NCBI RefSeq assembly: GCF_964213995.1
Contig: NW_027590140.1
Coordinates: 1 to 64,000 of the forward strand
Direction: 5' to 3'
Length of the DNA stretch: 64,000 bases
Source: Mustelus asterias
Taxonomy: Eukaryota
The position numbers were made by a program, and so were the translations under genes. Below the pieces are notes generated by a model. That model worked only from the letters and a program-made list of their open reading frames with translations, was not told where the DNA came from and searched no databases. Shown here piece after piece: positions 20,550 through 53,330 of this stretch (positions are counted from its first letter, which is position 1; the number at the start of each line of letters is the position of its first letter).

Positions 20550-23165
20550 ACTGGTAGGATAACGGTTGCGCATTGACCAAGGCGGGAATCACAGCTGTAG
20601 AGAAGGTGTATGCTGTGGAGGGATTGTCTACAGAGTCTCTGTGGGTGGAAGTTCGGAGTGGGAAGGGGTCGATCACTTTGCTGGGAGTTTTCTACAGGCC
20701 GCCCAATAGTAACAGGGAGGTGGAGTAGCAGATCGGGAAACAGCTCCTGGAGAGATGCAGTAATAGCAGAGTTGTTGTGATGGGAGACTTTGATTTCCCA
20801 AACATAGATTGGAATATCCCTCGGGCAAGGGGATTGGATGGGGAGGAGTTCGTTAGGTGTGTTCAGGAGGGTTTCCTAACACAGCATGTGGACAAGCCTA
20901 CAAGAGGAGAGGCTGTACTTGATCTGATACTGACCAATGAACCTGGACAGGTGTCAGATCGCTCATTGGGAGAGCATCTTGGGGATAGCGATCATAACTC
21001 TATCATTTTTATGCTTGCATTGGAAAAGGAGAGGATCAGGTTAGCTCAGAAAACGTTTATATGGAGTAAGGGGAAATATGAAGACATAAGGCCGCAAATT
21101 AGAGGAGTAAATTGGAAGGAGGTATTCCCGGGGAAATGTACTGAAGAGAGGTGGCAGTTTTTCAAGGAATGTCCGTCTAGAGTTCTGCAGGACAATGTTC
21201 CGAGCAGACAGCGAGGTGTTGGTAGGTTAAAGGAACCGTGTGGCACGAAAGCTGTGCGGGACCTAGTCGCAAAGAAAAGGAAAGCGTACAAAAGGTGCAG
21301 AGAGCTTGGCGAAGATAGGGATCTAAATGAGTATACGGCTTGTAGGAAGGGACTAAAGAAGGAAATTAGGAGAGCCAGAAGGCGTCACGAGAATGCCTTG
21401 GCAGGTAGGATTAAGGAGAACCCTAAGGCGTTCTATAAATATGTGAAAGGTAAAAGGATGAGACGTGAAGGAATAGGGCCGATAAAAGTTGAAGGTTGGA
21501 AAGTCTATACGGAACCAGTGGAAATGACAGAGGTGCTTAATGAGTATTTTGCCTCGGTTTTCACAGAGGAAAAGGACTTGGGTGGATGTACTGCGGGCTT
21601 GCGGTGGACTGAAAAGATTGAGTATGTGGACTTTAAGGAAGAGGTTGTGCTGGAATCTTTGAATGGCATCAAGATAGATAAGTCGCCGGGTCCGGATGGG
21701 TTGTACCCCAGGTTACTGTGGGAGGCGAGGGAAGAGATCGCAGAGACTCTGGTGATGATCTTTGCGTCATCGATGGAGATGGGAGAGGTGCCGGAGGATT
21801 GGTGGATTGCGCATGTGGTTCCTATTTTCAAGAAGGGGAATAGGGATAGCCCAGGAAATTACCGGCCAATGAGTCTAAACTCAGTGGTTGGTAAACTGAT
21901 GGAGAAGATGCTGAGGGACGGGATTTATGAGCATTTAGAGAGGCTTAGTATGCTCAAGAATACTCAGCATGGCTTTGTCAAAGGCAGATCTTGCCTTAGG
22001 AGCCTGGTGGAGTTCTTCAAAAACGTGACTAAACACATTAACGAAGGGAAAGCGGTAGATGTGGTTTATATGGATTTTAGCAAGGCGTTCAATAAGGTCC
22101 CCCATGCAAGGCTTCTAGCAAAAGTGAGAGGGCATGGAATCCAAGGTGCTGCTGCCCTGTGAAGCCAGAACTGGCTTGCCCAAAGGAGCCAGAGAGTGTG
22201 TATGGGTCTTTTTCTAAATGGAGGTCGGTCACCAGTGGTGTGCCCCAGGGATCTGTTCTGGGACCCTTGCTGTTTGTCATTTTCATAAATGACTTGGATG
22301 AGGAAGTGGAGGGATGGGTTGGTCAGTTTGCCGACGGCACGAAGTTTGGTGGGGTTGTGGATCGTCTGGAGGGATGTCAGAAGTTACAGAGGGACATAGA
22401 TAGGATGCAAGACTGGGCGGAGAAGTGGCAGATGGACTTCAACCCAGATCAATGCGTAGTGGTCTGTAGAGGATCAGAATGACCTTGGGGTCCGGGTCCA
22501 TTGGACTCTAAAATCGGCCCCGCAGGTGGAGGAGGTGGTGAAGAAGAAGGCGTATGGTGTGCTGGCCTTTATCAATCGAGCTTAGGAGTCCGGGGATAAT
22601 AATGCAGCTATATAAGACCCTCGTCAGACCCCACTTAGAGTACTGTGCTCAGTTCTGGTCGCCTCATTACCGGAAAGATGTGGAAATGATTGAAAGGGTG
22701 CAGAGGAGATTTACAAGGATGTTGCCTTGATTGAGTTGCATGCCTTATGAGGATAGGCTGAGGGAGCTCGTTCTTTTCTCCTTTGAGAGACGTAGGAGGA
22801 AAGGAGACCTAATAGAGGTGTATAAGATGTTGAGAGGCATAGATCGGGTGGACTCTCAGAGGCTTTTTCCCAAGAGTGGAAATGGCTGCTACGAGAGGAC
22901 ATAGGTTTAAGGTGCTGGGGGGTACGTACAGGGGAAATGTTAGGGGGACGTTTTTCACACAGAGGGTAATGGGCGAGGGAATCGGCTGCCATCAGTGGTG
23001 GTGGAGGCAAACTCAATCGGGACTTTTAAGACACTCCTGGATGAGTACATGGGACTTAATAGGATGGAGGGTTATAGGTAGGCCGAGAAGGTAGGGATAT
23101 GTTCGGCACAATGTGTGGGGCCGAAGGGCCTGTTTGTGCTGTAGCTTTTCTATGTTTCTCTGTCT
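20550..23165 (+). mobile_element. 5'-truncated CR1 LINE (APE endonuclease C-terminus plus RT), frameshifted
   Basis: GDFDFPNIDW, LGDSDHNSI, PGPDG, YRPMSL, QHGF, YMDFSKAF, GVPQGSVLGP, FADG (ORFs 20777-22162, 22159-22482); 3' tail ttctatgtttct. Confidence 0.95.
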
Positions 23166-23559
23166 AAACTGCAATTGAACGTGAACATTAAATTAAAGGT
23201 GGGATGGAAATCAGGGTTTGAATGGTGAACAAAATCACTCCTTAAAATTCCTAAATTCAGCTAATTAAGATATGAAGTGAACAATTTCTCCTGTACTTTC
23301 AGGTCCGGCTTTCTCTGTGCTTCTTATAATAAGTTCATTTGGAGTGTGTGTGGATCATTATATATCCTGTGAATCACTGTATTGTCCAGAATATTTTCAA
23401 AGTCAGAAGCACTAAATGAATAGCAAGATGCATTTCTCTGCTTTGCAACATATGAGTTTGGAATATACAAAGTGAGACAGGAACATAACAAAGTTTCCAT
23501 TCTCTAAAATTTCTAAGTGAAATTTTATCGCAGAATTTTACAGGAGCAGAATCGCTCAG

Positions 23560-25322
23560 GGTACCCAGGCAAAGAATACGGCCTGTTAAGGATAAATGGG
23601 AAAATCCGTTGGTGGAGGCAGAGGCCAGTTGTTGGATGTTAAACGAATATTTCACATCGGTCTTCACCCACGAGAATGAAGAGGTAGTTATGAAACTCGG
23701 GGAGAGAGACTGTGAGGTTCTAGAGCAAATTATCATATGGAGTGACAAGGTATGGAAGGAATTGGCGGGCTAAAAGTGGACAAGTCAACAGGTCCATATC
23801 AATTGTGACCCATGCTGTTGTGGGAGGCGACGCAGGAAATTGCCCGCTAGCCACCGGAGAGGTCTCAGTGGACTGGAGAAGAGCTAATGTGGTCCCACTA
23901 TTTAAAAAAAAGACGAGCAGGGGGGAACGACAGACCAATGAATCTTACGTCTGTGGTTCGGAAACTGCTGGAGAAGATTTTGAACGAGATCATCCATCTC
24001 CATTTGTAGAGGTAACGTACGATTAGAGATAGTCAGCATGGTTTTGTCAGAGCGAGGTCATGCCTAACAAATGTGATTGAATTGTTTGAGCATGTAAACA
24101 AGTGTGTAGTTCAGGATAGCGTGGTTGATGTAGCTTACATGTATTTCAGCAAAGCCTTTGCCAAACTCCGACATAGGTAACTTATTAAGAGTGCACACGG
24201 GATACACAGTGATCTGATAAGGTGGATTCATAATGGGTTAGCGATAGGAGACAGAGGGTGATGACAGACGACTGCTTTAGTGTGGGGAGGCCAGTGAACA
24301 GTGACGTACCACAGGGGTCCGTGTTGGCCCCCCAATCGTTAGTCATTGATATAAATGACATAGATTGATATATGGGGGATAAAATCAGTAAGTTTGCTGA
24401 TGACACAATGATTGGCCGGGTGGTTAGCAGTGAGGTTGAGTGTCTTGGGGGACAGCAAGATATAGACGAGATGGCCAAATGCGCTGATTAGTGGCAATTG
24501 GAATTTAACCCTGAAAGGTGTGAGGTGATACACTTCGGAAGGAGTAATTTGACAGGGAAGTGTCCTATGAAAGATCTGACACTGGGAAGTTCCGAAGAGA
24601 AAGCGGCCTTGCGTATTTGTCCATAGATTTCTGATGGCGGAAAGGCAGGTTCATAGGGTGATGAAAAAGGCATGTGGCACCCTCGCCTTGATCAATCGCG
24701 GTATAAATTACAAAAGTGGAGAGGTCATGATGGAGTTGTATAGAACTTTGGGGAGACCGCAGCTGGAGTACTTTGTGCAGTTCTGGTCGCCACCTTATAG
24801 GACGGATGTGATCGCAATGGAAAGGGTGCAGAGGAGATTCACGAGGATGTTGCCTGTGATGGAGCATTTAAGTTATAAAGAGAAGTTGGACAGGCTTTGA
24901 GTTTTTCTCTCTGCAGCAGAGAAGACTGAAGGGCGACCTGATTGAGTTGTTCATAATTATGAGGGACATGGACGAGGTGGATAGAAGGCTGCTATCCCCC
25001 TTTGTTGAAGGGTTTGTTACGAGAGGACGCAAATTAAAAGTGAGGTGGGAGGTTAGGGGGGAATTTGAGGACCATTTATTTTACCCAGGGCGTGATGACG
25101 GTCTGGAATGCACGGCCTGGGAGGTTGGTAGAGGCTGGAAGCCTCACATCCTTCAAAACAAAATATTTGCATGTGGACATGGCACTCCATAGCATACAAG
25201 GCTATGGGCCAAGTGCTTGCAATTGGAATTAGATGGGCAGGTCAGGGCCTTTCATGCGTCTGTACACACTCGATGGGCGGAAGGGTCTTTTCTGCACTGT
25301 ATTATTCTGTTGTTCTGTGATT
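23560..25322 (+). mobile_element. Older 5'-truncated CR1 LINE
   Basis: DWRRANVVPLFKK, KFADDT, RPQLEYFVQFWSP, ERVQRRFTRMLP; many stops; tail ttctgttgttctgtgattc. Confidence 0.9.
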
Positions 25323-25773
25323 CCGGGTCGAGGTTTCAGATAGATCTGGGCCCACATTGCAGTTTGATCGGTGATTACGCTCTGTCAATAATGATCGGGA
25401 TCTCGAACTTGGTTACATCTGCCTTTCGGACTTCTGGTCAGTTATACCTTCAGCTGAATTGGTTTGAGTTACCCTTGATGGACTCCTTATGCATAACTCT
25501 CTATTTCACTTTTGCAACGGCCTGTTGGGCTATACGTTATCACCTAGCAATCATACAGTACAATATGTTGGTTCCACATCAGAGTTGTTTCGACAAAAAA
25601 CGTTCCACATTGCTCGTATAACTTTATTTTTGAAGTGGAGTTTTATCTAGTTGTTTACTCTACCTGGCAACTGCTGGATGAACTTTTCAATAAAATGTCT
25701 ATTAAATTAAAAGGAAAACACCAGCAATTTCGGCAGCATCATAGGGTGATGTTGGATATTAAACGAACATGTG

Positions 25774-25834
25774 CAATTAATGTGCAACATCAAACCATGT
25801 AATTATGTCCGCTGAGACTGAGATCTGGTATAAA
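25774..25834 (+). promoter_or_regulatory. Putative core promoter of paralogue B
   Basis: CAATTA at 25774, TAATTA at 25800, TATAAA at 25829 (57 nt before the ATG). The string tataaatgtgacaat is identical in paralogue C. Confidence 0.55.
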
Positions 25835-25885
25835 TGTGACAATCTTTCGGGGTTGTGCAAAACACATTCTCAGTTTGTGCTTGAA

Positions 25886-25955
25886 ATGCATGGAATACCA
25901 AAAGGTCTGCTGTTTGCAATTTACTATCCTATCCTTGCAGCTGTTGGGTTTCCAG
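25886..25955 (+). CDS. GPR139-like paralogue B, exon 1 (MHGIPKGLLFAIYYPILAAVGFP)
   Basis: 70-nt exon ending CCAG|gtacag. Confidence 0.88.
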
Positions 25956-27295
25956 GTACAGTAATTTTACTACTTATTCATTGTGAATATAATTGTCTAA
26001 TATTTTCTCTCATATCTGACGTTACTCTATCACTTCTGTCATATATAAGAACTGCTTCTAGACAGCAGGTATATTCTTTTCCCTCATTAATCGGGCAATA
26101 TTTGGCTTTTAATGGGACACTCAATGCAGCTGAGATAGTATCATTTTCCCACTTCAATCGTTTTCACGCTCTGAACAACAACATAACTTATCCCTTTTAT
26201 TGACACAATTACACTACATTATTAGTGACTTTTCTCCACTTTTATGGTGTAATTTCTTCACTGAACCACAAAGGTTGCTTAACGTGCTGTTATACTATCG
26301 TCCCATGATGAGTATCATTGTATCCTTGCAATTGTGTATTTCTTCTATTTATTACTTCCAGCTCAAGGTATAAAGATAATTCTTTTATATTGGCGACAGA
26401 ATTTCTCTCGGTGAACTATTGGTGGTCATTGAAGTTTAATTGAGTTTCAATTGCATACTTGTCATTGTTGCTATGTGGGCGTTGTTGCACCTGCTCAATG
26501 TTACCATCGCGCACCTTGGTCCCAGCGCTTGAATGTGGAAGCTTTCTGCCAAATAGCTGAAATTGTCCATGACTATTTTATTAATTGGCTTCTGGCTTAA
26601 TTATCATGGCTCAAATATGGCAGCCTTGGAAGTGCAACAATGTTATATTGCTCGAGCCCTGGAAGAGCACATGAAACTAGAACCTTCCAGGTCTGAAGCG
26701 AGGGTACTGCTGACTGACCTGCAATGAGATATTTACATGTTGAGTTTCTTTATTGGTTTATGCAAATTATTGATATATTAGTTTGTGATCATTATCAATC
26801 AGGAGTCGAGCTCTTCCCAAGCAAATGGGTCGTTTATATTTCAGTCATCGTTTCTTTCTGTTTTTATTTTGTGTGAAACATTTCCCTTCTTTAACACTCA
26901 ATGTCATATATTGTCTTTCTGCCCAATTCCTTGGTCAATATAGTAATAGAGCCCATTCGAATTCGCAATGATTCGCAATGACTCTTCTTATCTTTGTTCT
27001 TCTCTACAATTTGAGACAGATGATAATTAATTGTATTTCCTGCCAATGATCTGCAAAGTACCAAGTTCAGTGTCCGCCATATGAGAGAAACAAAAATCTT
27101 CCTAATATTGCAGCAACATGCCAGCAGCTGTGTGCATTGAGTGGTTTTATTTCCTCCAGTTACGAGGCAGGTAATCCACCTGATATGCTAAAACTGCTCT
27201 CTCTGCGATGATTTCCCGACTTCTGAGTCATTGCAATATTTTATGTTCTGTCCTTATTTTCTAGCATTATTCACATGCTGTTTTTCCTGTCACAG

Positions 27296-28203
27296 CTAAT
27301 TTGGCAGTGACTGTGATCCTACCTCGAGGAAGATGTGGCCTTTCCAAATGTATCACTTATTACCTGGTATTCATGGCTGTAACGGATCTCCTCGTAATCA
27401 TCACTGCTGTGATAGTTAACCGGATTATAGGTATTTATTTCCAATTCAGTTTCCTGTCCATCACTCCGGTCTGTCGTGTTAGTCTTATGCTGATTTATGG
27501 GGTCAGGGATTCATCTGTCTGGGTCACCGTCGCGTTCACCTTTGATCGATTTGTTGCGATTTGTTGTCAGAAACTGAAAACCAAATTTTGCACAGAAAAA
27601 ACAGCAGCTGTGGTTATTGGAACTGCCTGCGCTCTGAACAGTGTAAGAAATATCCCGCTGTACTTTATCTATGAGCCTGCATTTTTCATCGATGAGACAC
27701 CATGGTACTGCAACTTAAAAACAACATATTACACAACAGCTGCTTGGGTCTCATTTGACTGGATTTTCGTCATCTTAAATCCTTGTCTTCCATTCATTTT
27801 GATTTTACTGTTTAATGCACTGACCGTAAGGCACATCGTTATAGCCAACAGAGCCCGGAGCAGACTCTTGGATCAAAGCAATGCAGAGAATCAGAGGGAC
27901 CCTGAAGTGGAGAAGAGGCGAAAGTCGATTGTTTTACTCTTCTGTGTCTCTGGAAGTTTCATCTTGTTATATTCGTTAGTAATTACAACTTTTCTCTGTG
28001 TCCAAATTGCGAACGTTAGCTATTACTCGGGCACCAATTACAATCAATCGAATTTTATTCTGGACGAAGGTGGGTATATGCTTCAGCTGTTGAGTTCCTG
28101 CATTAACCCATTCATTTACGCAGGCACCCAGAGTAAAGTAAGGGAGGAGTTAAAGATTTGGCTGACATACCCATTCTGTCTGATATTTAAACGATTGAAA
28201 TAA
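27296..28203 (+). CDS. GPR139-like GPCR paralogue B, exon 2; join(25886-25955,27296-28203), 325 aa
   Basis: Acceptor tttttcctgtcacag|CT. Intact frame with YYLVFMAVTDLL, AFTFDRFVAICC and INPFIY; AATAAA about 25 nt after the stop. Confidence 0.9.
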
Positions 28204-28237
28204 TCCTAATAGACATAGAAATAATGCGAATAAAACA

Positions 28238-28555
28238 TGAATCATACAGTGCAGAAGGAAGCCATTCGGCCCATCGAGTCTGCAGGAACACAATTCCACC
28301 CAGGCCCTATCCCCATAACTCTATGCATTTACCCTAGTTAGCCCTCCTGACACGAAGAGGCAATTTAGCATGGCCAATTTGCCTAACCCGCACATTTCTG
28401 GACTGGGGAAGGAAACCTGCGCACCCGGAGGCAACCCACGCAGACACGAGGAGAATTTGTAAACCCATGCAATCAGTGACCCAAGCCGGGATTCGAACCC
28501 AGGCCCCTGTTGCTGTGAGTCAGCACTGCTAACTTCTGTGTCACCGTGCTGCCCA
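28238..28555 (-). mobile_element. HE1-type SINE just 3' of paralogue B
   Basis: Same head, core and tail as the other HE1 copies. Confidence 0.88.
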
Positions 28556-31277
28556 ACATCATGTGACATTCATTGCTTTTGCTGTTCATTTTACACGTGA
28601 CCTCTACAATGGGCTGTGTTCTTGCTCTCTCTCGCTTTTTCTTTCCTCTGTGGTCCAAGGTGCCTGAATTGGCGGCGGTTCATGATGTCCATGAAGGCAA
28701 GACATCAGAAAGGCAAGTACTCATTAAAGAAGGGAAATGTGTTGGGAAACATGGGGGCTATGCTCTCACCATCTGAAACTAGCACATCATGCCACATGCA
28801 TTAATTCGCACGACCTGGAATTTGGGAAGGTGCCTAAAATTCTAACTTACGGTAATCTATCTGAATCTCACCAATGTCAAATGCCACAAACTCACTCGTC
28901 TTTAATCCCATCATTCTTCAAGGCTCAGTGAGGTTTACAAACTGCAGGTTGCCCTTTTCCTGCTTTGCTGCCCCCGGCAGATTTTCTCTTGGAAAGAGCG
29001 CGATGAACTATGATGACGAAGGAGAGAGTAAAATTAATGCAGAGAGTAACAGTGAGACAGTGAGGAACAGCGACCAATTCAGGATAGATAGTGAGTGCCG
29101 GGAGAGTCCTCGTCACTTTATAAACAGGGCAGAGATCTGTAAATGGAGATGTGTTCCTTATCCACATTTAAAACATAGTTCTCATTGCCACCAGTTACAG
29201 CTCACAATCTCTGTTCAGTCCTATGTTTGGGGGGAGGGCGGGGACAGGGGGTTGGAGTTGAATGGTATTTAGTGTGGGATCGGTGTTTATCTTTTCTAAA
29301 ACAACAGTGAGATTTCCAACAAGAGTAACAAGGGCAAGATGTGATAGTTCTTAAAAATGTAAAAAAAATATAAACAGCAGCAGGTAGAAGTGATCAGGCC
29401 TCGCAACTTCAAGTTAGTGATTTTCCAGTATTTCTCACTTTATGAATTGCTTCTTTCACGTTCCTGAAATATTGGAGGCAATTCATTGTCTCGGGCCCTT
29501 CACTGTAAATAGCATCTGTAAACAAATTGACACTACAATCAGCCAAAAACCTGAATGTCCATTCAAACCTCTCCCTCACATATGCTTGCAAAGCTTACTC
29601 AGGTTTCCAGAGTCATTTATCAGATAGAAACATCTTCCCCCAGCGTCTTATGAACAACACATTTTCCACAGACCAAACTGTTAAAAACATTCCCAAGAGT
29701 TTTTGTTTAACTCTCTTATTAAATTCTTTGCAGGTCCTGTCACTGCATGAGAGAGAAACACAGTTCAGGGAGAGAGGCTTTCACCGTTTTTCAATCGTAA
29801 CCCCAAACGGAAGTTTCCCATTGCAGACAAAGATAATACAATGGCTTATACACAGAACGACATATAGAGAGAGGCACACTGGCACACAACAACTGTCATA
29901 AACGAAGAGGTATACAGCGAAAGAGATACAAACGGAAATACAGAGAGACATGCAGATAAAAAAGTAGAAAATAGGAACAGAAGAAGTCTATTCGGCCCTG
30001 TGATCCTGCTCCGCCTGCATCAAACTAAGTAAAACCTGCTCCCCAAACGCCCCCCCCTCCCCTACCACCATTTACCCTTTGATTCCAAGGTTGTATACAA
30101 CTCCTTCGTGATGACAAGAAAGGCTTTAGCCTCGACGGATTACTGTCGTCGTGAATTGCATCGGCTCACCAATCTATTGGTGAAGGAGTATTTGCTCGTC
30201 TCAGTCCAAAATGTTTTTATCTGGCATCCTTCAACATTGATCCGTGGTTCTGGATGACCTTGCCATGGGAGCATCCTTCCAGCCTGTACCATGTCCAGCC
30301 CTGTTAGAAATTTACAGATTTATACGGCATCCTCCTCTCCCAGTCTACATTCTTCTGAACTCCCATGAATGTAATCCTGACCGATTTTTTTATCCACTCG
30401 TGGGACATGTGGGGGAGTCCGGATCCACGTGTCATCCTCTAAGGATAATGGGTAAACATTTTAGTACTGAGATAAGGAGAAATCTTTTCACGCAGAGAGT
30501 GGTAAGCCTGCGGATTTCGTGGTGGAGGTGATGACATTATATGTTTGCAGGAAGGAATTAGATATACCAACTATGGCATCGTTACTGAAGTGTCGTCGTT
30601 GTTGCATTTACTTAGCATGCAAAGGATGCTCGTTCAAAAGTGGGTTAACAAATTAACATGCGTGATTTTAAATTCAAAGGGGGTTAAGCAACACTAATCA
30701 TAAATATAATCACATTCCTGAATCAGCTCTACGGTGAGTGAGACAGAGACAAGCATCAGAATGTTACCCCGCAATCTCCAATCACCCACTGCCACCAGAT
30801 AGCGGCGACTGCAGCTTCAATCAGCGGGTGGCTCCCCATCCCTGCGACAACAGCAACCCAGGACAATCCTCTCAATACACCGAGCACAGGCTCAGGAAAA
30901 CACAGGTAGATGATAAAACGGCTCACTGAACGTCCGAGCTGCATTTACACAATACCGGAGTGTGTGAGTCACAAAAAAAAGCCACAACAACTTTCTTAAA
31001 ATTTTCGGTGTAAAATTCCTCAATTTGATTTAAAAGCTGAGTGTTGTGAATCTGCAATGAGCGCCAATGAATCTGTCTTACCCAGTGATTTGTTTCCCAT
31101 TGGTTTTCCGCCTGGTTTGCAATTCGATTTTTGTTGGAGATTGAAGTGAATCTCATTTCAAAATGAGAACACAAAGGAGGAAAATATGAATCCAGGAATA
31201 ACTCCTGAGTAAAATGGTTCACAATGCTTGGAACAAGGTGCAGCTGTGAATGATGTTATTGATGATTGAGTTGGAAG

Positions 31278-31482
31278 TACAGTAAGTAGTCTCACAACAC
31301 CACGTTAAAGTTCAACAGGTTTATTTGGTGGCACGAGCTTTCGGAGCTCTGCTCCGACATCAGGTGAAGGAGTTGCGCTCCGAAAGCTCTTGCTGCCAAA
31401 TGAACCTGTTGGAATTTAACCTGGTGTTGCGAGAATTCTTACTGTACCTACCCCAGTCCAACGCTGGCAACTCCACATCATG
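31278..31482. mobile_element. Inverted (palindromic) Penelope pLTR pair with mutated minimal hammerhead motifs
   Basis: Arms 31278-31362 and 31363-31446 are reverse complements and match the 3' repeat of the Penelope copy at 55121-55210. Confidence 0.8.
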
Positions 31483-31958
31483 ACTTGAAGGTCCTGTAGC
31501 CTTGGGCTTCTGGTGGTCAATTCTATTCTCTACCGTTTAATTTCTCCCTGCCGTAAGAGGCATGGATTCATTTTACTTTTTCGTAGGAGAAAGGGAATAC
31601 CCCCCACACACAGCAACCATGTGGAAACAAAATAACGGAAGGCACTTGTATGGAATTGTAAACGATGTGGTCATGCTGTCGTTCTGGATCAGCTTTTGCA
31701 GCAATAGAATTTGCTCGAATCTGTAGAGAAATGATTAACGCCCTAATTTAAGATACCTGTTGCAGCTCGGCTATTGAAAGAACGATTGGTAGTTCGAAAT
31801 AATCCAGGGACGGAAATTCTACTGTTTTCTCCCCAGCAGCATTCATACGCAAACATTTGCGGGTTGGTAATGGGTCCGTGGCCGCCCTTAAAAATGTCTC
31901 CCAGCGTTACCAACGTTATTTAATTCATAAATGTTCATTGTATACATGTTAAATGAAG

Positions 31959-31987
<29 letters not shown>
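31959..31987. repeat. (TA)n microsatellite
   Basis: Direct inspection. Confidence 0.95.
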
Positions 31988-31991
<4 letters not shown>

Positions 31992-32029
31992 TATGCTATT
32001 AAACGTAAGATTCAGTGTTGAAACATTAA

Positions 32030-32960
32030 TTCGTGGCTGAGCATTTGTTTAAGTTCGATATTCCCGCCTGCTTCCCTTCGTTGCTGGACAGAAGAAATCT
32101 GTCTATCGCACAATGAAATGTGTTCAATGATGGAGCATCCAGAACCTTCTGGAAGAGAAAATGCCAACGATTCCCAACATTTTGAGTGGAGTAATTTCTC
32201 GTCATCGCTTCTCAGCCTTTTGGCTAAGATCAAGTGCAGCATCGACATGCTGTACTTGGTTGAAGCCACAAGGTTACATTGTAGCTTCATTTGAAGCATT
32301 TTTTAAAAGCAGCATCTCGGCCTTTTGGCTGAGATGCAAATGAGATCAAGCCTTGGAGCAGGTGCAATGCCTACTCCAATCAGCTTGGATCCTATAGATC
32401 AAGTCCAAGATAGGAGGTGAGATCCCTGTCTTGTCAGCTTGGACCGGGTATGTATCACTTGCTGCGACACTGAATTGGACTTTGATTGGATTGAATTGGA
32501 TATATAACCAACAAAACTATTCTCCTCATCTCAGTCCTAAATGTCCTAAAGTCTTTGTCCCTTATCCTGAGACTGTGTCCCATATTTTAAATCATTTGAG
32601 AATGCGAATGACATCTCAGAATGCATCCGATTTATTCCATTCATTCTTGTGTATGTTTCAATGAGATAGTATATCATTTTGCTGAACTCCAGAGAAATTG
32701 AGCCCAATTTACCCGATCTCGCATGATAGGACAACCCCTTCATCTCAGAGAATAGCCCAGTGAAGTTTTGTTGTACTGTCTCCATTAGATGCACATCCTG
32801 TCTTAAATGTAAAACACCAAAAATGCACACAATATTCCAAATGAGGGATTGGCAATACCCGGAGCAAATGCAGCAAGGCTTCAAAGGTTACGAAACTTGA
32901 CTCCGTACAAAAGACTGAAAGGAGAGCGTGACTGCGAATAATTGGCACTGTGCAACTTCC
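32030..32960 (-). mobile_element. Decayed CR1 3' end interrupted by the U2-headed element
   Basis: PHLEYCVHFW and METVQQNFTGL..MKGLSY peptides. The host sequence resumes at 32520. Confidence 0.75.
32204..32519 (+). mobile_element. U2 snRNA-headed SINE-like retroposed element
   Basis: U2 nt 1-40 at 32204-32243 (37/40 identical); second U2 head at 32312-32335; two hairpin units; (TGAAT/TGGAT) repeats; A-rich tail; flanking direct repeat ttctc(g/c)tcatc at 32196-32206 and 32520-32530. Confidence 0.7.
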
Positions 32961-33522
32961 TGTAATCTGCATCTTGGAGAATTAGGAAGATAAGATCCTG
33001 GTGTCTCTATCCCCTGTCATCTGTGAACTCCCTCTCTTCACACAACGTTGTGTCCTATAATCCCCGATCCTCCCTCCAACTATCTGGGTCTGCCACAAGA
33101 AGCTAATTGATCCGAGGAGCTGGACGGTCAGAGGGAGCAGAAGGAGAGGCAGCAACAGAAACGTAAAGAGATGTGACATTAAAATGTTTAACATATGATC
33201 TGCGTCAATTGCTTTCAGTGACCGATGTCTGCCTTGTGTTGCCTCATACGTATCACATGAGCTGCAATGATGAGGTTGGTGAGACTTAGAAATTGAAAGT
33301 TACATATCAGCAGCTTATGGGACTATTTCATCGCACTGCTAATTTCATGTTCCAGTTAACAGCATTCGTGTTTCCACTGGCTAAGAAGTCAATTTTGCTC
33401 AGCTTAAACTTGACAATTTCAAGGAGAAACTTGTTTCTGGGGAAAAAAAGTCTGAAAAGAAAATGAAAGTCAAAGGTTTCAATTATCAATTAGATATTCG
33501 AAAAAATCAGCACCTCGTATTT

Positions 33523-33594
33523 TACCTAGTGGTCTCGTGGTTAGGATGCAGCGCTTGCACCGTTACTGCTTGGGTTCGATTTCTTGTCAGGGCA
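33523..33594 (+). pseudogene. tRNA-Glu pseudogene
   Basis: 72 nt, tacctagtggtctcgtggttaggatgcagcgcttgcaccg...gggttcgatttcttgtcagggca, aligns to tRNA-Glu. Stems and anticodon are mutated. Confidence 0.75.
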
Positions 33595-34047
33595 AGCAAC
33601 TTTATTATTGTGCATCAACCATTATTGATTTTGTGGTCAGTACCAGTAAGGGAGATGCACGACTTTGTGCTTGAGTTGGAAATGTCACGTTCAGAAGATC
33701 AAGAACAGGAAAAGGACAGTGATCGGCTGCAAAGCGCTGACGATAGAGATGGCAATACAAGGTAAAATCTGGCCAATAATGCGTAGATTTTATTTTTTCC
33801 ACTGACAGAAGTATAGCACAGATCTCGGTCCAAATATGATGCTAAATGATTTAAAAACAAACCTCTAGCTGAATTAAGCACCAAACATTTCGGCTTCCAA
33901 TGGAGGACAGGCAGTTTTCATTCAGAAACCAGTAACTGAGGGTTTCACAAAGCAGCACGGGGAAATACCCAGTTTGAGTGGTGACACTGCCGGAGGAATG
34001 GAGAGCTGGAATTCACACAGGAAAACAGAAAAGTTTAAAAACACTGA

Positions 34048-34119
34048 CGCCCAAAGTGGGCCTCAAACCCACGACCTTAACATTAAGAGTTTCTGCTTTA
34101 CCGACTGAGCTCGCTAAGC
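34048..34119 (-). pseudogene. tRNA-Lys(CTT) pseudogene
   Basis: Reverse complement gcttagcgagctcagtcggtaaagcagaaactcttaatgttaaggtcgtgggtttgaggcccactttgggcg. Confidence 0.8.
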
Positions 34120-35231
34120 ACATTGCGTCAGCGGCGTTTCAAAATGTGCTTTTCCATCTGGCATCTCAGATTGTTCAAATTTCAAAGTGGGGAATATGTT
34201 CCACGTAGGTTACAATGCATTCTTCTCAATTATCATTAACATTATTCACATCTTACTCTTCTATGCTGCACCTCCCTCCAAAGTTTACAAACTCCTCTTA
34301 CATAGTTCATCTTCATTATTTTTGTCAGAAACATTTTGTCAGACACATGACCTGCTGACATGAAGGGTAAACCAGCAGGAAGATTGGCAGAGGCGGGAAC
34401 TGAGGCCGAATCACCACAGACACTAGAAATTGAAAAAATACCTTAGCTCGTCCAGCCACACTGCCACCATGACATCACCTTAACCATTGTTTTGACTGCA
34501 CTGATTAGCGTATGGTTAACATGGACAGAGGTGGGTCATTTGGCCCCTCGGGCATTCTCAGCTACTTAATAAGAAATGTCCTGAACTTTTACACTGTTCT
34601 GTTTACCTTTGTATAGCATATTAATCTGAAGCTACACAACTAAGGTGAATATCCCTGAAGGATGATAATTAAGTTCTGAAACGTTAACTCTGTTTCTGTC
34701 TCGACTTGTTGAGTTGATCCAGCATTTTCTGTTTTTATTTCGGATTTCCAGCGTATGCAGTATTTTTGTTTTTTATCAGATGAATAAATAACAGCCGATG
34801 TTGATCTGGGACTATGGTGACTTTATTTGCCATGACCTCATTAAATGGTGGAGGAGGCTCAATGGGATACATGACTTTGTCTTACTCCATTAATTCTGTT
34901 TCCTGGCAGCCCAGATATGACACCATTTGCTTCCTGTGGTAGCGTTGCTGGGTCGTCTAAGGCACTGAATCCAGCGTAATAATAACGGGGAAATATTGGA
35001 ATCTAATCATATCACTTTCAAATGTTAATTTACTTTAAAAGTCATGGAATACAATTCGTTGATCAAGTCAGCAGAAAATAACGCCACAGGGTGTATCATT
35101 ATTCATTTTGATAGGAGGAAACGGGAGGACCATTGTAAATATAACTTCATGTGGACAAGAGACGGGCTTGTGGAACCAGTTTACTTTCCCCTCCAGAAAA
35201 CAGCACTTGCTTCAGGTAACAATATTGCAGT

Positions 35232-35305
35232 GCTTCTGTAGTGTAATGGTTGTCACGTTTGACTTACACGCGGAAGAACCCCCACTTCGAAACTGATCAG
35301 AAGCA
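35232..35305 (+). pseudogene. tRNA-Val pseudogene
   Basis: gcttctgtagtgtaatggttgtcacgtttgacttacacgcggaag...ttcgaaactgatcagaagca aligns to tRNA-Val. Confidence 0.75.
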
Positions 35306-35967
35306 TTTCCATACATTTTTAATGTCAATGCCATTCGGATTTCATTAATGGTCACCAACTTTACTGAGCTGCAGAGCACTTGTTGCATTTTCTAATTGTG
35401 AACTCAGGAATCACTCGGCAACAAAAATAAAACAAGAAGGAAGGTCAGTGATAGAGAGCAAGGCAAGGTAGATTAATTGTCACAAGGAATGATGGACAAG
35501 GCAAAATTGAGCTGGTGATTCAGAATAAGGAAATGCTGGAAAAACAGGTCAGGCAGCATTTATGAAGAAAGAAGAGAGCCAAGGTTGAAACGTTATTCCA
35601 CAGATGCTGTCTGCCCTGCTGAGTTATTCCGGCATTTTCTGTTTGCATTTCAAGTTCCAGCATCCGCAGTATTTTGCCTTGATCCTTTGAGCTGGTGATG
35701 GTGGAGCCTGGGCGGTCTCATGGTTCAGAGTCAATGCTTCCCCCGCAAAGGCCGCGCTCAATCACAAACTGTTAAATAAACAGTGCATTTTGAAAGTGAA
35801 AGTTGTTCTGTACCAATAGGTGAACGGATCTGAACACAAGAGGTATTTTCTGTAATTGGTTGCAACATGACAGAATGAATGTCTTACAATGTCCACAGCT
35901 CAAGAGGCTTGAACTGATGCAACGAGTAGAAAGATGTTCAACTAATTGCAAATCTCTTGCATGTGCT

Positions 35968-36030
35968 TCCCTCTGAGTCTCGTGGTCAGGATTCGGCACT
36001 GTGACCCGGGCTTAATTTCCAGTCATGGAA
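35968..36030 (+). pseudogene. tRNA-Glu-like pseudogene with internal deletion
   Basis: tccct....gtctcgtggtcaggattcggcact...cccgggctta.tttccagtcatggaa. Confidence 0.5.
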
Positions 36031-36229
36031 TTAATAACTTTTTATTTAGTTCTTCATTAAGTGGAAACACGCCTCTGCGAACGGAGTAACAAATTAATCT
36101 TCGAACTGGGGAAACGTGTATCAGAGCTGGAAAATCAGAGATGTAACATGAACAAAAAGCTCTGAAGAAGAATCACACAACAGACACATGGCAGGCAGTG
36201 ATCATTTAATGTGATTTACACGATTTGTG

Positions 36230-36505
36230 GACTTCCACACCTAGGTCCCTCTGTGTTTCTATACTCTTGATGGCTCCCCCCTTCATTAGTTCTTCCAAAA
36301 TGCACCACTTCGCATTTACCTGGATTAAATTCCATCTGCCATTTCTCCGCCCAATTTTCCAGCCTATCTATATCCTGCTGTATTGTCCGACAATGTTCAT
36401 CGCTATCCGCAAGTCCAGCCAACTTCGTGTCATCCGCAAACTTGCTGATAACACCAGTTACCCCTTCTTCCAAATCATTTATATACATCACAAATAGCAG
36501 AGTTT
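36230..36505 (-). mobile_element. CR1 RT fragment
   Basis: YINDLEEG..ISKFADDTKL..LENWAEKWQMEFN. Confidence 0.9.
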
Positions 36506-37459
36506 TCTCTGACTGAACCTTACCTGTTTAAGTAGTTAAAGTGCTGAAGTTTTAAATAATAAGACACCAGGATACGTCACCCTGTTTGATATGAAATGAA
36601 ACAAAATGAGAGTAAATCATTTCATAAAATTTTGCTGATGCAAAATATATTTCATTGCCAAGGCCAGTATTTGTTGGCCATCCCTCTTTCCCCTTCAACT
36701 GAATATTTTGCTGGGCCATTTCATAGCATATTTAACAGTCATAGATTCATAGAATCATACAGGTTTAAAATGTGGAAACAGGCCCTTCGGCCTAGCATGC
36801 CCATGCCACCCTTTTTTAATGATTAAGCTAGTCCCAATTGCCCGCGCTTGGGACATATCCCTCAACAGCCATAATATCCATGTAACCGCCTAAACCCTTT
36901 TTAAAAGGCAAAATTGTACCTTTCTCTACTGCTACCTCCGGCAGCTTGTTCCAGACACTCACCATCCTCTGTGTGACAAAATGCCCATCTGCACTCCTTT
37001 GTATCTCTCCCCTCTCACCTGAAAACTATGCTCTCTAGTTTTAGACTCCGCCACCTTTGGAAATATATATTGACTATGGAGCTGATCTCTGCCCTTCAAT
37101 ATTTTATAGACCTCTCGAAGATCACCCCGAAGCATCCTCCGCTCGAGAGAAAAAAGTCCCAGTCGATCCAGCCCGTCTTTGTAACTCAAACCATCAAGTC
37201 CCGGTAGGATCCTCGTAAATCCTTTCTGCACTGTTTCCAGTTCAATAATATCGTTTCTATGATAGGGTGACCGGGACTGTACTCAATATTCCAAGTGTGG
37301 CCTCACTTGTCTTGTACAACTTCAAGCAGACGTCCCAACTCCTGAATTCAATGTTTCGACCAATGAAACCAAGCATACCGAATACCCACTTCACCAATCT
37401 GTCCGCCTGTGACTCCACTTTCAATGAGATGTACCCCTGGATCTATTTGTTCTATAACT

Positions 37460-40400
37460 ATATATTTAACTCGCTGTAGTGATAGCGAGTTGAGGAACAG
37501 GGAGCGAGTGCAGTTAAACATGTGGTTGCAGGGATGGTGTAGGAGGGAAGGTTTCAGATACGTGGATAATTGGAACACATTCTGGGGAAGGTGGGACCTG
37601 TACAAACAGGACGGGGTGCACCTGAACGAGAGGGGCACCAATATCCTCGGAGGGAAATTTGATAAGGCTCTTCAGGGGGGTTTAAACTAATTTGTCAGGG
37701 TAGTGGGAAAAGGAGTTGTAATCCAGAAGTCAGTGTTGAGGGTGGCGAGGTATTGGGGAAGGTATCAAGGTCAAGGGTGGGTACCGGTAGCAGGAAGGTG
37801 GGTTGAAGTGTGTCTACTTCAATGCAAGGAGCATCCGGAACAAGGTAGATGAACTTGCGGCGTGGATTGGTACTTGGGACTACGATGTTGTGGCCATTGC
37901 GGAGACGTGGGTAGCACAAGGACAGGAATGGTTGTTGAATGTTCTGGGGTATATATGTTTCAGTAAGTGTAGGGAAGCTGGCAAAAGAGGTGGAGGAGTA
38001 GCATTGTTAATCAAGGATAGTTTAACGGCTGCGGAAAGGCACTTCGAGGGGGATCTGCACACTGAGGTAATATGGGCTGAGCTTAGAAATAGGAAAGGAG
38101 GGGTCACGTTGTTAGGAGTTTACTATAGGTCCCCAAATAGTAATAGAGATGTGGAGGAAGAAATTGCTAAGCAGATTATGGATATGTGTGGGGGTCACAG
38201 GGTAGTTGTCATGGGGGACTTTAACTTTTCAAATATTGATTGGAACCTTTGTAGGTCAAATAGTTCGGATGGGGCAGTTTTCGTGCAGTGTGTGCAGGAG
38301 GGTTTCCTGACACAATATGTGGATAGGCCGACAAGAGGTGAGGCCACATTGGATTTGGTACTGGGAACTGAACCGGGCCAAGTGTTAGATTTGGTTGTGG
38401 GAGAACACTTTGGAGATAGTGACCACAATTCGGTGTCTGTTGTTATTGCAATGGAGAGGGATAGGGCCGCACGGCAGGGCAAGGTTTACAATTGGGGGAG
38501 AGGTAATTATGATGCGATGAGGCAAGAATTAGGGGGCATAAGATGGGAACAGAAACTGTCAGGGAAAGGCACTAATGAAAAGTGGAACTTTTTCAAGGAA
38601 CAAATACTGGGTGTCCTTGATGTATGTCCCTGTCAGGCAGGGAGGAAATGGCTGTGTGAGGGAACCATGGTTCACGAAAGAGGTGGAATATCTTGTGAAA
38701 AGGAAGAGGGAAGCTTATGTAGGGATGAGGAAACAAGGTTCAGATGGCTCGATTGAGGGTTACAAGTTAGCAAGGAATGAGCTGAAAAAGGGGCATAGGA
38801 GAGCTAGGAGTGGACATGAGAAGTCCTTGGCGGGTCGGATCAAGGAAAACCCCAAGGCTTTTTACTCTTATGTGAGGAATAAAAGAATGACCAGGGTGAG
38901 GTTAGGGCCGGTCAAGGACAGTAGTGGGAACTTGTGTATGGAGTCAGTAGAGATAGGCGAGGTGATGAATGAATACTTTTCTTCAGTGTTCACCAAGGAC
39001 AGGGGCCATGTTTTTGAGGAAGAGAAGGTGTTACAGGCTAATAGGCTGGAGGAAATAGATGTTCGGAGGGAGGATGTCCTGGCAGTTCTGAATAAACTGA
39101 ATGTCGATAATGCCCTGGGCCTGATGAAATATATCCTAGGATTCGTTGGGAGGCAAGTGATGAGATTGCATAGCCTTTGGCTTTGATCTTTGGGTCCTCG
39201 CTGTCCACGGGGATAGCGCCCGAGGACTGGAGAGTGGCGAATGTTGTTCCTCTGTTTAAGAAAGGGAATAGAAATGACCCTGGTAATTATAGACCGTTTA
39301 GTCTTACTTCGGTGGTTGGTAAATTGATGGAAAAGGTCCTTAGGGATGGGAATACGACCATTTAGAAAGATGCGGATTAATCCGGGATAGTCTGCACGGA
39401 TTCGTGAAGGGCAAGTCGTGCCTCACAAATTTGATTGAATTCTTTGAGGAGGTAACTAAGTGTGTTGATGAAGGTAGGGCGGTTCATGTCATATACATGG
39501 ATTTTAGTAAGGCGTTTGATAAGGTCCCCCATGGTCGGCTTATGATGAAAGTGAGGAGGTGTGGGATAGAGGGAAAGTTGGCCGATTGGATAGGTAACTG
39601 GCTATCTGATCGAAGACAGAGGGTGGTGGTGGATGGAAAATCTTCGGACTGGAGGCAGGTTGCTAGTGGAGTGCCACAGGGATCAGTGCTTGGTCCTCTG
39701 CTCTTTGTGATTTTTATTAATGACTTAGAGGAGGGGGCTGAAGGGTGGATCAGTAAATTTGCTGATGACACCAAGATAGGGGGAGTAGTGGATGAGGTAG
39801 AGGGCTGTTGTCGGCGGCAAAGAGACATAGATAGGATGCAAAGCTGGGCTGAAAAATGGCAAATGGAGTTCAACCCTGATAAATGTGAGGTGATTCATTT
39901 TGGTAGGACTAATTTAAATGTGGCTTGCAGGGTCAAAGGTAGGGTTCTGAAGACTGTGGAGGAACAGAGAGATCTTGGTGTCCATATCCACAGATCTCTA
40001 AAGGTTGCCACTCAAGCGGATAGAGCTGTGAAGAAGGCCTATAGTGTGTTAGCTTTTATTAACAGGGGGTTGGAGTTTAAGAGCCATGGGGCTCTGCTGC
40101 AAATGTACAGGACCTTGGTGAGACCACATTTGGAATATTGTGTGCAGTTCTGGTCACCTCACTATAAGAAGGATGTGGAAGCGCTGGAAAGAGTGCAGAG
40201 GAGTTTTACCAGGATGCGGCCTGGTTTGGAGGGTAGGTGTTATGAGGAAAGGTTGCGGGAGCTAGGGCTGTTCTCTCTGGAGCGGAGGAGGCTGAGGGGA
40301 GACTTAATAGAGGTTTATAAAATGATGAAGGGGATAGATAGAGTGAATGTTCAAAGACAATTTCCTCGGTTGGATGGAACTATTACAAGTGGGCATAACT

Positions 40401-40656
40401 ATAGGGTTCGTGGTGGGAAATAGGAAGGATATCAGAGGTAGGTTCTTTACGCAGAGAGTGGTTGGGGTGTGGAATGGACTGCCTGCAGTGATAGTGGAGT
40501 CAGACACTTTAGGAACATTTACGCGGTTATTGGATAGGCACATGGAGCACACAAGGATGATAGGGAGTGGGATAGCTTGATCTTGGTTTCTGATAAAGCT
40601 CGGCACAACATCGTGGGCCGAAGGGCCTATTCTGTGCTGTACTGTTCTATGTTCTA
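37460..40656 (+). mobile_element. Near-complete CR1 LINE: ORF1 esterase C-terminus plus frameshifted ORF2 (APE-RT)
   Basis: ORF1 WCRREGFRY..DLYKQDGVHLN (SGNH DxxH). ORF2 YFNARSI..AIAETW..GDFN..SDHN, FADDTKIGG, RPHLEYCVQFWSP. (TTCTATG)n tail; 12-bp duplication tgttctataact at 37448-37459 and 40657-40668. Confidence 0.95.
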
Positions 40657-40889
40657 TGTTCTATAACTCTCCCCAACGCCCCACCATGAACTGAGTAAAT
40701 CCTGCCGTGGTTCGATCTACCAAAATGCATCACCTCACATTTATCTGAAGTAAATTCCATCTGCCAGTCGTCAGGCCACTGGCCCAATTGATCAAAATCC
40801 CTTTGCAGTCCTTGAAACCGTTCTTTACAGTCCACTATGCCACCTATCTAGATGTCATCTGCAAACTTACAAACTGTGCCTCCTAAATT

Positions 40890-41055
40890 GGCGGGAGTAA
40901 CTATGACTCTCTTAGAAGGGTCTCACTAGAGAGTCATCTCTGGGTAGTTACCTCTGTGAATGTTATTGGCGTGTTTTGGCATTCACAGTGAAGTTGTGCC
41001 TCCTCGCGGCCCCGTCGGTAACCTTGGTGGCTTGCCACCAAGGGCTAAACAACTT
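40890..41055 (+). ncRNA. HDV-like self-cleaving ribozyme of an R2-type retrotransposon 5' end, including 28S rRNA target-site sequence
   Basis: P1 GGCGGG 40890-95 / CCCGUC 41011-16; P2 AAGUUGU 40991-97 / ACAACUU 41049-55; P3 GCC/GGC with L3 UCCUCGC; P1.1 GG 41017-18; P4 9 bp with CUUG loop, 41022-43; J4/2 GCUAA with the catalytic-position C at 41045. 40890-40914 equals the 28S sequence GGCGGGAGTAACTATGACTCTCTTA. Confidence 0.92.
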
Positions 41056-41863
41056 TGTTAAAAACAACGCAGAGACCGTAGATAGATAGTCCACAGAGAG
41101 ATTTGTGCGATTTGATATAGGCGGTTAGCGAAATGAATAATATTCCCGAAAAGGGGGAATCCGGATGGGTTGGGTCCCGGTTAAATAACAGCCCCCCAGA
41201 TGAGTCTGTAGCCGCTCTCTGGGAAAAATTCAAAAAGTTAGGCTATACTAGAACTAGCCCTAAGAAGCTAGAGACAAGTTCCGTCTCCACTCAAACAGAA
41301 GAGACGGTCTTGAGACCCGAGTTAAACTATCGGCACTATTGGGTGGTATATTCTGGTCCCAGTCCAGGTAAGGTAGCTACCCCAGTAGTTGAGGACATTG
41401 AACCTATTGTAGAGGAGCCCGTTCGGACGGCCATCCAACGGATGACGTAGTTGAGTTAACTACAGTTACCTTCTATAATAAGGCCTATAAAGCCCAGAAT
41501 ATGGGTTTGGGAAGCTTAGAAATAAGCAAAAATACCGTAAGCGATGTTGGTACTTCTGGTACCTTCATCGAGACTGTTAGCATAGAGCCAACTCAGGACC
41601 GAACTAAGGGTAGTATAGTTAATAGTTTTTAATTTTTCAGTCTTGATTCGGCCTATTCTATCAGTCCTGAGGTGGTGGAGTTTCGTGCACTGGGTACCAA
41701 CAACTTGGCTCGGTAGCCCCAATTAGATCTTGGGAGGGTAGTACCCCTGATTTGACCTTATAATCTGGCCTCAGTTTAGATTAGTAGTCCCTTGACTGTG
41801 AATTCGCTAGAGGTAGACAAACACGTCGACGAGCGACGTAAAGACTCGAACATGGCACTCATT

Positions 41864-42089
41864 NNNNNNNNNNNNNNNNNNNNNNNNNNNNNNNNNNNNN
41901 NNNNNNNNNNNNNNNNNNNNNNNNNNNNNNNNNNNNNNNNNNNNNNNNNNNNNNNNNNNNNNNNNNNNNNNNNNNNNNNNNNNNNNNNNNNNNNNNNNNN
42001 NNNNNNNNNNNNNNNNNNNNNNNNNNNNNNNNNNNNNNNNNNNNNNNNNNNNNNNNNNNNNNNNNNNNNNNNNNNNNNNNNNNNNNNNN
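41864..42089. other. Assembly gap (226 N)
   Basis: Run of N. Confidence 1.
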
Positions 42090-44920: not shown

Positions 44921-44992
44921 GGGTCTATGTTGTAATGGTGAGCACTCTGGACTCTGAATCCAGTGATCCGAGCTCAAATCTCGATGGAACCT
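44921..44992 (+). tRNA. tRNA-Gln(CTG), probably a pseudogene
   Basis: Anticodon arm ctgga-ctCTGaa-tccag is intact, but there are G3:A70 and C49:A65 mismatches, G10>T and T54>C in the B box. Confidence 0.75.
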
Positions 44993-46179: not shown

Positions 46180-46251
46180 GGTTCTGTGTTGTAATGGCCA
46201 GAACTCTGGACTCTGAATCCAGCGATCCAAGTTTAGATCTTGGTGGGATCT
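46180..46251 (+). tRNA. tRNA-Gln(CTG), probably a pseudogene
   Basis: Intact anticodon arm; the T loop TTTAGAT lacks C56, the D arm is mutated and the acceptor stem has many GU pairs. Confidence 0.7.
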
Positions 46252-52939: not shown

Positions 52940-53330
52940 CTTTCCGTCCGTTCATTCCTCCGTCCGTCCTTCTCCCTCTCCCCATCCATCCATCCATCCG
53001 TCCGTTGGCCCGTCCATCCGCCCATCCATTCATCCNNNNNNNNNNNNNNNNNNNNNNNNNNNNNNNNNNNNNNNNNNNNNNNNNNNNNNNNNNNNNNNNN
53101 NNNNNNNNNNNNNNNNNNNNNNNNNNNNNNNNNNNNNNNNNNNNNNNNNNNNNNNNNNNNNNNNNNNNNNNNNNNNNNNNNNNNNNNNNNNNNNNNNNNN
53201 NNNNNNNNNNNNNNNNNNNNNNNNNNNNNNNNNNNNNNNNNNNNNNNNNNNNNNNNNNNNNNNNNNNNNNNATCTATTCATCTCTCTCTCTCTTCTCTCT
53301 CTCTCTCTACCTCGTTATCTATCTATTTGT
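52940..53330. repeat. (CCAT)n and (CT)n microsatellites flanking an assembly gap (53036-53271)
   Basis: Direct inspection. Confidence 0.9.

Follow-up and report, generated by a model that had tools for sequence, protein, structure and literature searches.

Positions 32204-32519 of the window, which is the whole 64,000-nucleotide stretch of Mustelus asterias DNA analysed here, hold one copy of a family of non-coding retroposons about 310 nt long. Members of the family are short, non-coding and multicopy, have a shared structure and end in a poly(A) tail. The reading favoured here, with a probability of about 0.72, is that they are U2-headed, A-tailed SINEs that use the target sites of a Keno-type LINE, are likely copied by the enzymes of that LINE and likely take their RNA from U2 promoters.

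Architecture of the window copy

The copy is a mosaic of pieces, all on the forward strand, inserted into an older repeat that lies on the opposite strand.

32196..32206, plus strand: left target-site duplication of 11 bp, whose last 3 bases are U2 nt 1-3
32204..32243, plus strand: head of U2 snRNA nt 1-40 with the branch-point recognition sequence (from identity to genomic U2 and Rfam U2)
32247..32276, plus strand: fold-back strand, whose predicted partner is U2 nt ~7-40
32262..32310, plus strand: probable U4-derived segment (nt ~20-69) that includes a T-run as well as a small hairpin (from the oldest-subfamily consensus)
32312..32335, plus strand: second U2 head (nt 4-27), which closes its own hairpin
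32344..32446, plus strand: two related hairpin units, with conserved stems and loops that vary between subfamilies
32430..32500, plus strand: 3' region with a short hairpin and TGAAT/TGGAT repeats, with a weak colinear likeness to the LINE end
32501..32519, plus strand: decayed A-rich tail
32520..32530, plus strand: right target-site duplication, the 11-mer TTCTC(G/C)TCATC
32092..32846, minus strand: host repeat, a decayed antisense LINE 3' region interrupted by the element (from uninterrupted copies)

The head is identical to the genome's own U2 at 37/40 positions, and the identity ends at nt 40. An earlier note on this DNA had described this nt 1-40 head, a second U2 head, two hairpin units, TGAAT/TGGAT repeats and an A-rich tail, and all of these are present where it placed them. 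The hairpin units occupy 32344-32391 and 32397-32446, and a 10-bp repeat is found in three copies at 32471-32501. The 11-bp duplication that the note reported is also genuine, with a single 11-mer in the empty host-repeat copies L090, L084 and L143, and the flanks match the uninterrupted copies L090, L084, L124 and L087, as expected for the insertion into an antisense LINE that had been proposed. The host repeat is presumably CR1-like, from the resemblance of its translation. A body of about 270 nt that is not U2 is common to all copies, in agreement with the view that the element is not a plain truncated U2 pseudogene. Nor is it a U2 gene, because there is no identity past nt 40; the head and generic hairpins account for the Rfam match to full-length U2 (48.6 bits).

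The window copy lies inside a stretch of at least 19 kb (window 23064-41863) that is segmentally duplicated; its duplicates on C90, C71 and C138 are 97.8-99.7% identical, and the SINE is present in six copies in total. Because the insertion sits in this duplication, the five other genome matches of 98-100% identity were rejected as separate insertions and are regarded as segmental duplicates of the whole region. Elsewhere in the window, stretches of N occupy 41864-42089 and 53036-53271, outside the element. Rfam tRNA matches lie at 44921-44992 and 46180-46251, and a decayed-looking tRNA-like copy is seen by eye at about 33525-33596; ARAGORN called no tRNA within the window.

The family and its subfamilies

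Genome searches with parts of the element return thousands of matches, and the concern that it might exist as a single copy has no basis. The tail motif has 5,827 genome matches (control 0), and all 30 tail-motif loci that were fetched belong to the SINE family; the head-junction 25-mer has 712 matches (control 0). A DNA search of the genome with the element gives 3,131 candidates, 40 of which were scored, and the older subfamily has 2,414 candidates. The family has the U2 head as its constant 5' end, and this head is not an incidental U2 fragment. In a sample of 30 copies, picked by the head junction and hence uninformative on deeper truncations, 19 begin within U2 nt 1-5. Target-site duplications, which had been proposed as a check on other copies, reach a score of at least 9 in 8/27 tailed sampled copies and in 0/27 controls. 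The flanks of the sampled copies are mostly unrelated to one another.

The family comprises three subfamilies of graded age, and successive subfamilies differ by 12% or more. The old subfamily has a mean divergence from its consensus of 8.1% (28 copies). The middle subfamily, to which the window copy belongs, has a mean divergence of 4.1% (58 copies), and the window copy itself diverges by 7.5%. The third subfamily is heterogeneous, with about 1% between its closest pairs, and it takes the most derived position when the tree is rooted on the oldest copy. Contigs of four runs, with four organism labels (X1, X3, X8 and X22), cover 30/30 body bins and show the SINE to be present in related organisms; three of these runs are only guessed to be RNA. 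In X8, one high-depth contig carries younger-subfamily variants, and contig depth cannot rank expression.

Two kinds of unusual copy were seen. L202 and L205 have the same foreign insert of about 26 nt where part of the second head should be, which hints at one more small subfamily. At L088 (1463-1700) a SINE continues from its second U2 head into true U2 nt 4-94, an arrangement that recurs within the locus; this element is a SINE-U2 recombinant.

Predicted fold and snRNA origin of the body

The predicted RNA of the element is a chain of hairpins. The window element has a fold z-score of -6.67, and 0/100 shuffles are as stable. A structure of 70 pairs, examined over 31 chosen copies, is paired in 97.8% of cells, a score that kinship of the copies can inflate; the loops vary freely, and two-sided changes occur at only 2/70 pairs. 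In the first helix, which has 17 pairs, U2 nt 18-36 is predicted to pair with the strand directly after it; this helix is 98.7% paired over the 31 copies, with one-sided changes only. According to this model, the fold-back would mask the U2 branch-point recognition sequence.

The segment of about 70 nt between the two heads, which the earlier note had taken as unrelated sequence, actually consists of the fold-back strand and a U4-like piece. The snRNA tests used the genome's own U4 and U1, with 24 comparisons in the U4/U1/U2 set. In the oldest consensus, alignment of the inter-head segment with U4 nt 20-69 scores 41, against a maximum of 34 in 500 shuffles, and for a second U4 copy the score is 29 against a maximum of 28. 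The youngest subfamily gives p values of 0 and 0.022, the middle subfamily gives 0.14-0.18, and the window copy alone is not significant; the U4-like segment is clear in the oldest subfamily and eroded in the window copy. These alignments suggest that the segment between the heads was probably derived from U4. The two large hairpin units resemble each other, and they have no match to U1, U2 or U4 and nothing convincing in Rfam. Several other origins for parts of the element were rejected: the alignment of the body to U2 nt 41-191 is not significant, there is zero match of the body to U1 and of the 3' half of the element to U4, and no ribozyme or other Rfam family is credible.

The heads of SINEs normally provide an internal Pol III promoter, and the genes of U1 and U2 have upstream promoters only. 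Runs of T4 and T5-6 inside the element may argue against transcription by Pol III, and Rfam searches give no tRNA, 5S or 7SL match in it. A perfect ATGCAAAT octamer lies at window 32334-32341 and is kept in all three subfamily consensus sequences; it stands about 180-190 nt before the 3' end of each copy. By eye, no PSE-like element is found inside the SINE.

Copies inserted in U2 genes

The insertion point of the SINE in U2 is nt 37/38, which is the site of the Keno-type LINE described below. A U2-targeting site at nt 37-38, close to the end of the U2 homology, had been pointed out in the earlier note, and the SINE junctions fall there. Nine exact junctions of the SINE tail to U2 nt 38 are present in the genome (control 0). 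Two of them (L080 and L081) lie in arrays, three (L073, L077 and L078) in composites and four (L074, L075, L076 and L079) beside short or decayed U2 pieces; L074, L076 and L079 are of the window-subfamily type, with U2 nt 38 at the 3' end and without a promoter. With nine exact junctions against at least 5,827 copies, about 99.8% of the copies are away from U2 genes.

When the decayed junction L072 is included, three SINE copies lie in true U2 arrays, where the earlier note had suggested looking, and two of these stand directly at +1 behind U2 upstream DNA that is 99-100% identical to that of intact units. This DNA is labelled as the putative promoter because it precedes intact U2 genes. The true U2 arrays are on C24 and, as 448-bp units of a variant type, on C21. 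On C24, the upstream region is followed by U2 1-40 and the SINE, then by U2 38-55 and a truncated LINE, and next by U2 38-55, a SINE and U2 38-191. On C21, inside the array, an intact upstream unit is followed by the SINE and U2 38-185. A second type of U2 upstream DNA has 19 matches, of which 10 lead into the SINE, 5 into the LINE and 4 into an intact U2. A search with exact or one-mismatch patterns placed no middle-subfamily copy immediately after either type of upstream DNA. The promoter-linked copy on C24 has a private deletion with one genome match, and it was rejected as a source since its deletion occurs nowhere else. In the tree, the copies from the arrays fall within the most derived clade, where dispersed copies 2.6-3.1% away are their sisters.

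The variant U2 type on C21 (G000:C21:28045000-28082000, L161-L165) is about 85-90% identical to the main type, and its 448-bp units are nearly all invaded by the Keno-type LINE, with inversions. At L061 (G000:C24:44838000-44847999), a tandem unit of 8,035 bp, made up of an intact U2 gene, a broken Keno-type LINE and a U2 without its 5' end, is amplified about 15 times.

The partner LINE and the sharing of target sites

The partner LINE has an ORF1 with a ZCCHC3-like RBD and zf-CCHC, and an ORF2 with APE, RT and zf-RVT domains. It thus has the domain set of Keno: an APE endonuclease, an RT and a Tx1-type ORF1. In the C24 and C21 arrays the LINE ends at U2 nt 38, and at its start, behind the U2 upstream region, stands U2 nt 1-33/35. 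The label of Keno-type Tx1 element rests on these domains and this site. Of the two links that the earlier note had offered, to Keno or to Utopia, the former stands and the latter falls, as the endonuclease of the partner is of the APE type. Many copies of the LINE are dispersed outside U2 genes. In the first 30 LINE tails listed, U2 nt 38 never follows, and exact U2 junctions are few, so that targeting is loose. No intact full-length ORF2 of the LINE was seen in the roughly 110 kb scanned, where the longest open frames, both unannotated, have 1,144 and 1,087 codons.

The LINE and the SINE share off-target sites as well as the U2 site. A SINE lies within 1.5 kb of 6/30 of the first-listed LINE 3' ends, for which the probability of co-insertion by chance is about 7e-7 if 12,000 SINE copies are assumed. 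L137 has the order SINE-LINE-SINE, with four copies of one 13-nt target setting the pieces apart, and L139 is similar. Judged from the shared targets, the SINE appears to be mobilised by a LINE of the Tx1 clade. The flanks of dispersed SINE and LINE copies have only a weak common A-then-T bias.

In the comparison of the SINE with the LINE, which had been suggested for both the body and the 3' end, the body has no match to the 5' UTR or the interior of the LINE, and the last 75 nt or so show a weak resemblance only. The oldest consensus has 13 identical bases with the LINE 3' end (p 0.005); across subfamilies, LINE variants and gap settings, p for this resemblance ranges from 0.001 to 0.98. In a profile search for this resemblance, no hit rises above shuffles.

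Other Tx1-like tails occur in the genome. The older SINE copies L008, L014, L074, L220, L227 and L234 adjoin 3' ends of the Keno-type LINE, suggesting a long partnership. Pieces of the Keno-type LINE are also found inside a U1 array (L265-L267, C8) and, together with old SINE copies, in U4 clusters (L177, L178, L180, L218, C1418).

A-to-G changes

Each of 115 copies was compared with its five nearest neighbours. On the sense strand, A>G changes (152/8499) exceed T>C changes (95/10345; p = 2e-7), and C>T and G>A changes are balanced (p = 0.2). In three copies A>G makes up a large share of the changes (15/19 in L190, 13/19 in L213 and 10/10 in L129). The rate in these copies is highest after T (12/33) and lowest after G (6/65), and with respect to the following base it is highest before G (18/62), a neighbour pattern that we take to fit the preference of ADAR. 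A>G is not enriched in predicted stems, with 23/134 paired and 19/107 unpaired positions changed. The clusters are likely to reflect ADAR editing fixed by reverse transcription. The window copy has one A>G among 23 changes and is thus not hyper-edited.

Source of the RNA and alternative readings

Several dispersed copies that are flanked by duplications carry U2-locus DNA 5' of the SINE (L125, L112, L122, L113, L124, L071 and L129/L130). In L125 (18 bp duplication) and L112 (10 bp duplication), this DNA comprises the whole U2 spacer and part of the previous U2 gene. In L122, L113 and L124, it is 36-153 nt of U2 spacer, and in L071 and L129/L130, the latter being one event that was duplicated, it is 7-13 nt. 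At L115 spacer DNA is present and no duplication was found. These composites fit read-through RNA from SINE-bearing U2 arrays, and template jumping could also form them. In ordinary copies, the 5' ends cluster at U2 +1 and no upstream DNA is shared, and no 5' extensions other than U2-locus DNA were seen to recur. Together with the copies at +1 in the arrays, these features make the borrowing of U2 promoters probable.

The same family and the same LINE could also be combined with another source of RNA, in which most transcripts come from tandem arrays, with the upstream copy providing promoter elements, or from host transcripts, and the insertions into U2 genes are a by-product of LINE preference. 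SINE tandems are common, at 7/25 sites (24 in the accompanying computation), a second copy lies within 1.5 kb at 10/30 loci, and each copy has a perfect ATGCAAAT octamer; moreover, the middle subfamily lacks a promoter-linked copy and the promoter-linked copy on C24 is sterile. Even so, such a source is unlikely, as it does not account for 5' ends that cluster at U2 +1 without common upstream DNA or for 5' extensions that recur from the U2 locus only, and the SINE has no PSE-like element that can be seen by eye. A different LINE (L1, CR1 or another Tx1 element) might instead mobilise the SINE, with the Keno link due to chance or secondary. The weak A-then-T bias of the dispersed flanks and the further Tx1-like tails in the genome would allow this, yet the identical U2 junction and the duplications shared with the LINE at L137, L139 and C24 leave it scarcely credible.

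The remaining alternatives concern the nature of the element itself. If it were a deletion derivative of Keno, in the manner of the R2 SIDEs, its U2 head would be co-transcribed target; it has the same site and the same U2 head as the LINE, and the oldest subfamily has the 13-nt identity and a colinear similarity (p 0.001-0.13, depending on scoring and LINE variant). Against this, the body matches neither the LINE's 5' UTR nor its interior, and it includes another U2 head as well as a U4-like piece; for the partner LINE family this origin, which is improbable overall, is largely refuted. Of the two options in the earlier note, a U2-SINE that works with a U2-targeting LINE and probably with U2 promoters is supported, and a non-autonomous derivative of Keno or Utopia finds mostly no support because the body is unlike the LINE. 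It is very improbable that the element is a functional host small RNA, a remodelled U2/U4 variant with thousands of retropseudogenes. A strong conserved fold, the alignment by the U2 model of a hairpin and U-tract to the positions of stem IIb and the Sm site, and the occurrence under several organism labels would suit such an RNA, but no single conserved gene was found, the subfamilies differ by 12% or more, and the copies linked to a promoter interrupt U2 genes as insertions whose junctions are of the LINE type.

Under the favoured reading, that of a SINE at Keno-type target sites with U2-promoter RNA, a copy that lands in a U2 gene would replace the start of the gene with its own U2 nt 1-40. 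The full-length element would thereby stand at +1 behind an snRNA promoter and could become a source. Transcripts reading through from U2 arrays would carry spacer and promoter DNA away together with the element, and the enzymes of the Keno-type LINE would copy and insert the SINE RNA. Most insertions would fall elsewhere and hence be silent, with the window copy probably among them. The fold-back strand may hide the branch-point-binding sequence, and older U2-resident sources would have been lost by array turnover. The complete scenario is put forward tentatively, at slightly less than even odds: an independently evolved U2/U4-mosaic SINE would re-insert into U2 genes, where its head rebuilds the 5' end, inherit the external promoter and have it exported by read-through, be recognised by the LINE at least partly via the U2 head and hide the branch-point sequence from the spliceosome by its fold, with ADAR editing feeding the subfamilies.

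Comparison with known systems

In the cited part of Kojima 2015 (PMC4494074), SINEU-1, -2 and -3 are reported from crocodilians only, with Tx1-Mar as the partner and Mariner-N4_AMi as the target, and the way in which SINEU is transcribed is left open. SINEU and the present family both have an snRNA-derived head, repeated snRNA pieces, a poly(A) tail and internal T-runs, and they are also alike in duplications of about 10-20 bp, a length below 500 bp, tandem insertion and a Tx1-clade partner deduced from shared targets (PMC4494074). Unlike SINEU, as far as it is described there, the present family has the U2 gene as its target, copies behind U2 upstream DNA, a probable U4 piece and a fold-back of the head. 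The element works like SINEU; its membership in crocodilian SINEU-1, SINEU-2 or SINEU-3 is unlikely, given the published description of their target and body. No mention of a shark snRNA-headed SINE was found in the cited portions of a review (PMC5381603) and of a paper on shark and chimaera SINEs (PMC5499810), and a family of this kind is not described in the literature searched; because the search did not extend to Repbase, Dfam or most subscription papers, an entry may already exist.

Keno is described in passages of two papers (PMC4494074, PMC4640811) as a U2-specific member of the Tx1 clade with an APE endonuclease. The flank of both Keno and Utopia is U2 nt 38/39, and Keno carries the APE domain (excerpts of PMC4640811). 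The partner LINE is like Keno in having APE and RT and in ending at U2 nt 38/39 (PMC4640811), and it departs from the site-specificity of Keno in that most of its copies are dispersed. The SINE, compared with Keno, encodes nothing and has little sequence in common with it. Utopia, according to the same excerpts, has a restriction-like endonuclease and the same U2 insertion site, where the partner LINE has an APE domain instead (PMC4640811).

If the favoured reading is true, snRNA-headed SINEs extend beyond crocodilians, U4 is added as a probable source of them, and Keno-type LINEs gain a parasite. The family would offer an answer, with named loci, to the question of how snRNA-headed SINEs are transcribed, in that the target is the gene whose promoter is needed. 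In the edited copies, the genome would preserve traces of RNA editing that acted on retroposon transcripts. This analysis contributes the probable U4 origin, which subfamily age helped to resolve, an editing signature, and the finding that speaks against the C24 copy as a source.

The nearest mechanistic precedent, to judge from the cited sections of PMC3414825, is provided by the R2 SIDEs of Drosophila, which are LINE deletion products with a ribozyme that are confined to rDNA. Neither kind of element is autonomous; both exploit the target that a site-specific LINE has in a multicopy RNA gene, and they rely on transcription of the host gene, in the case of this SINE presumably (PMC3414825). 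A body of the SIDE type, with the 5' and 3' ends of the LINE, is absent from the SINE, which has only the weak 3'-terminal resemblance. Unlike the SIDEs described there (PMC3414825), the present element is an snRNA mosaic, has no match to a ribozyme family and is spread genome-wide.
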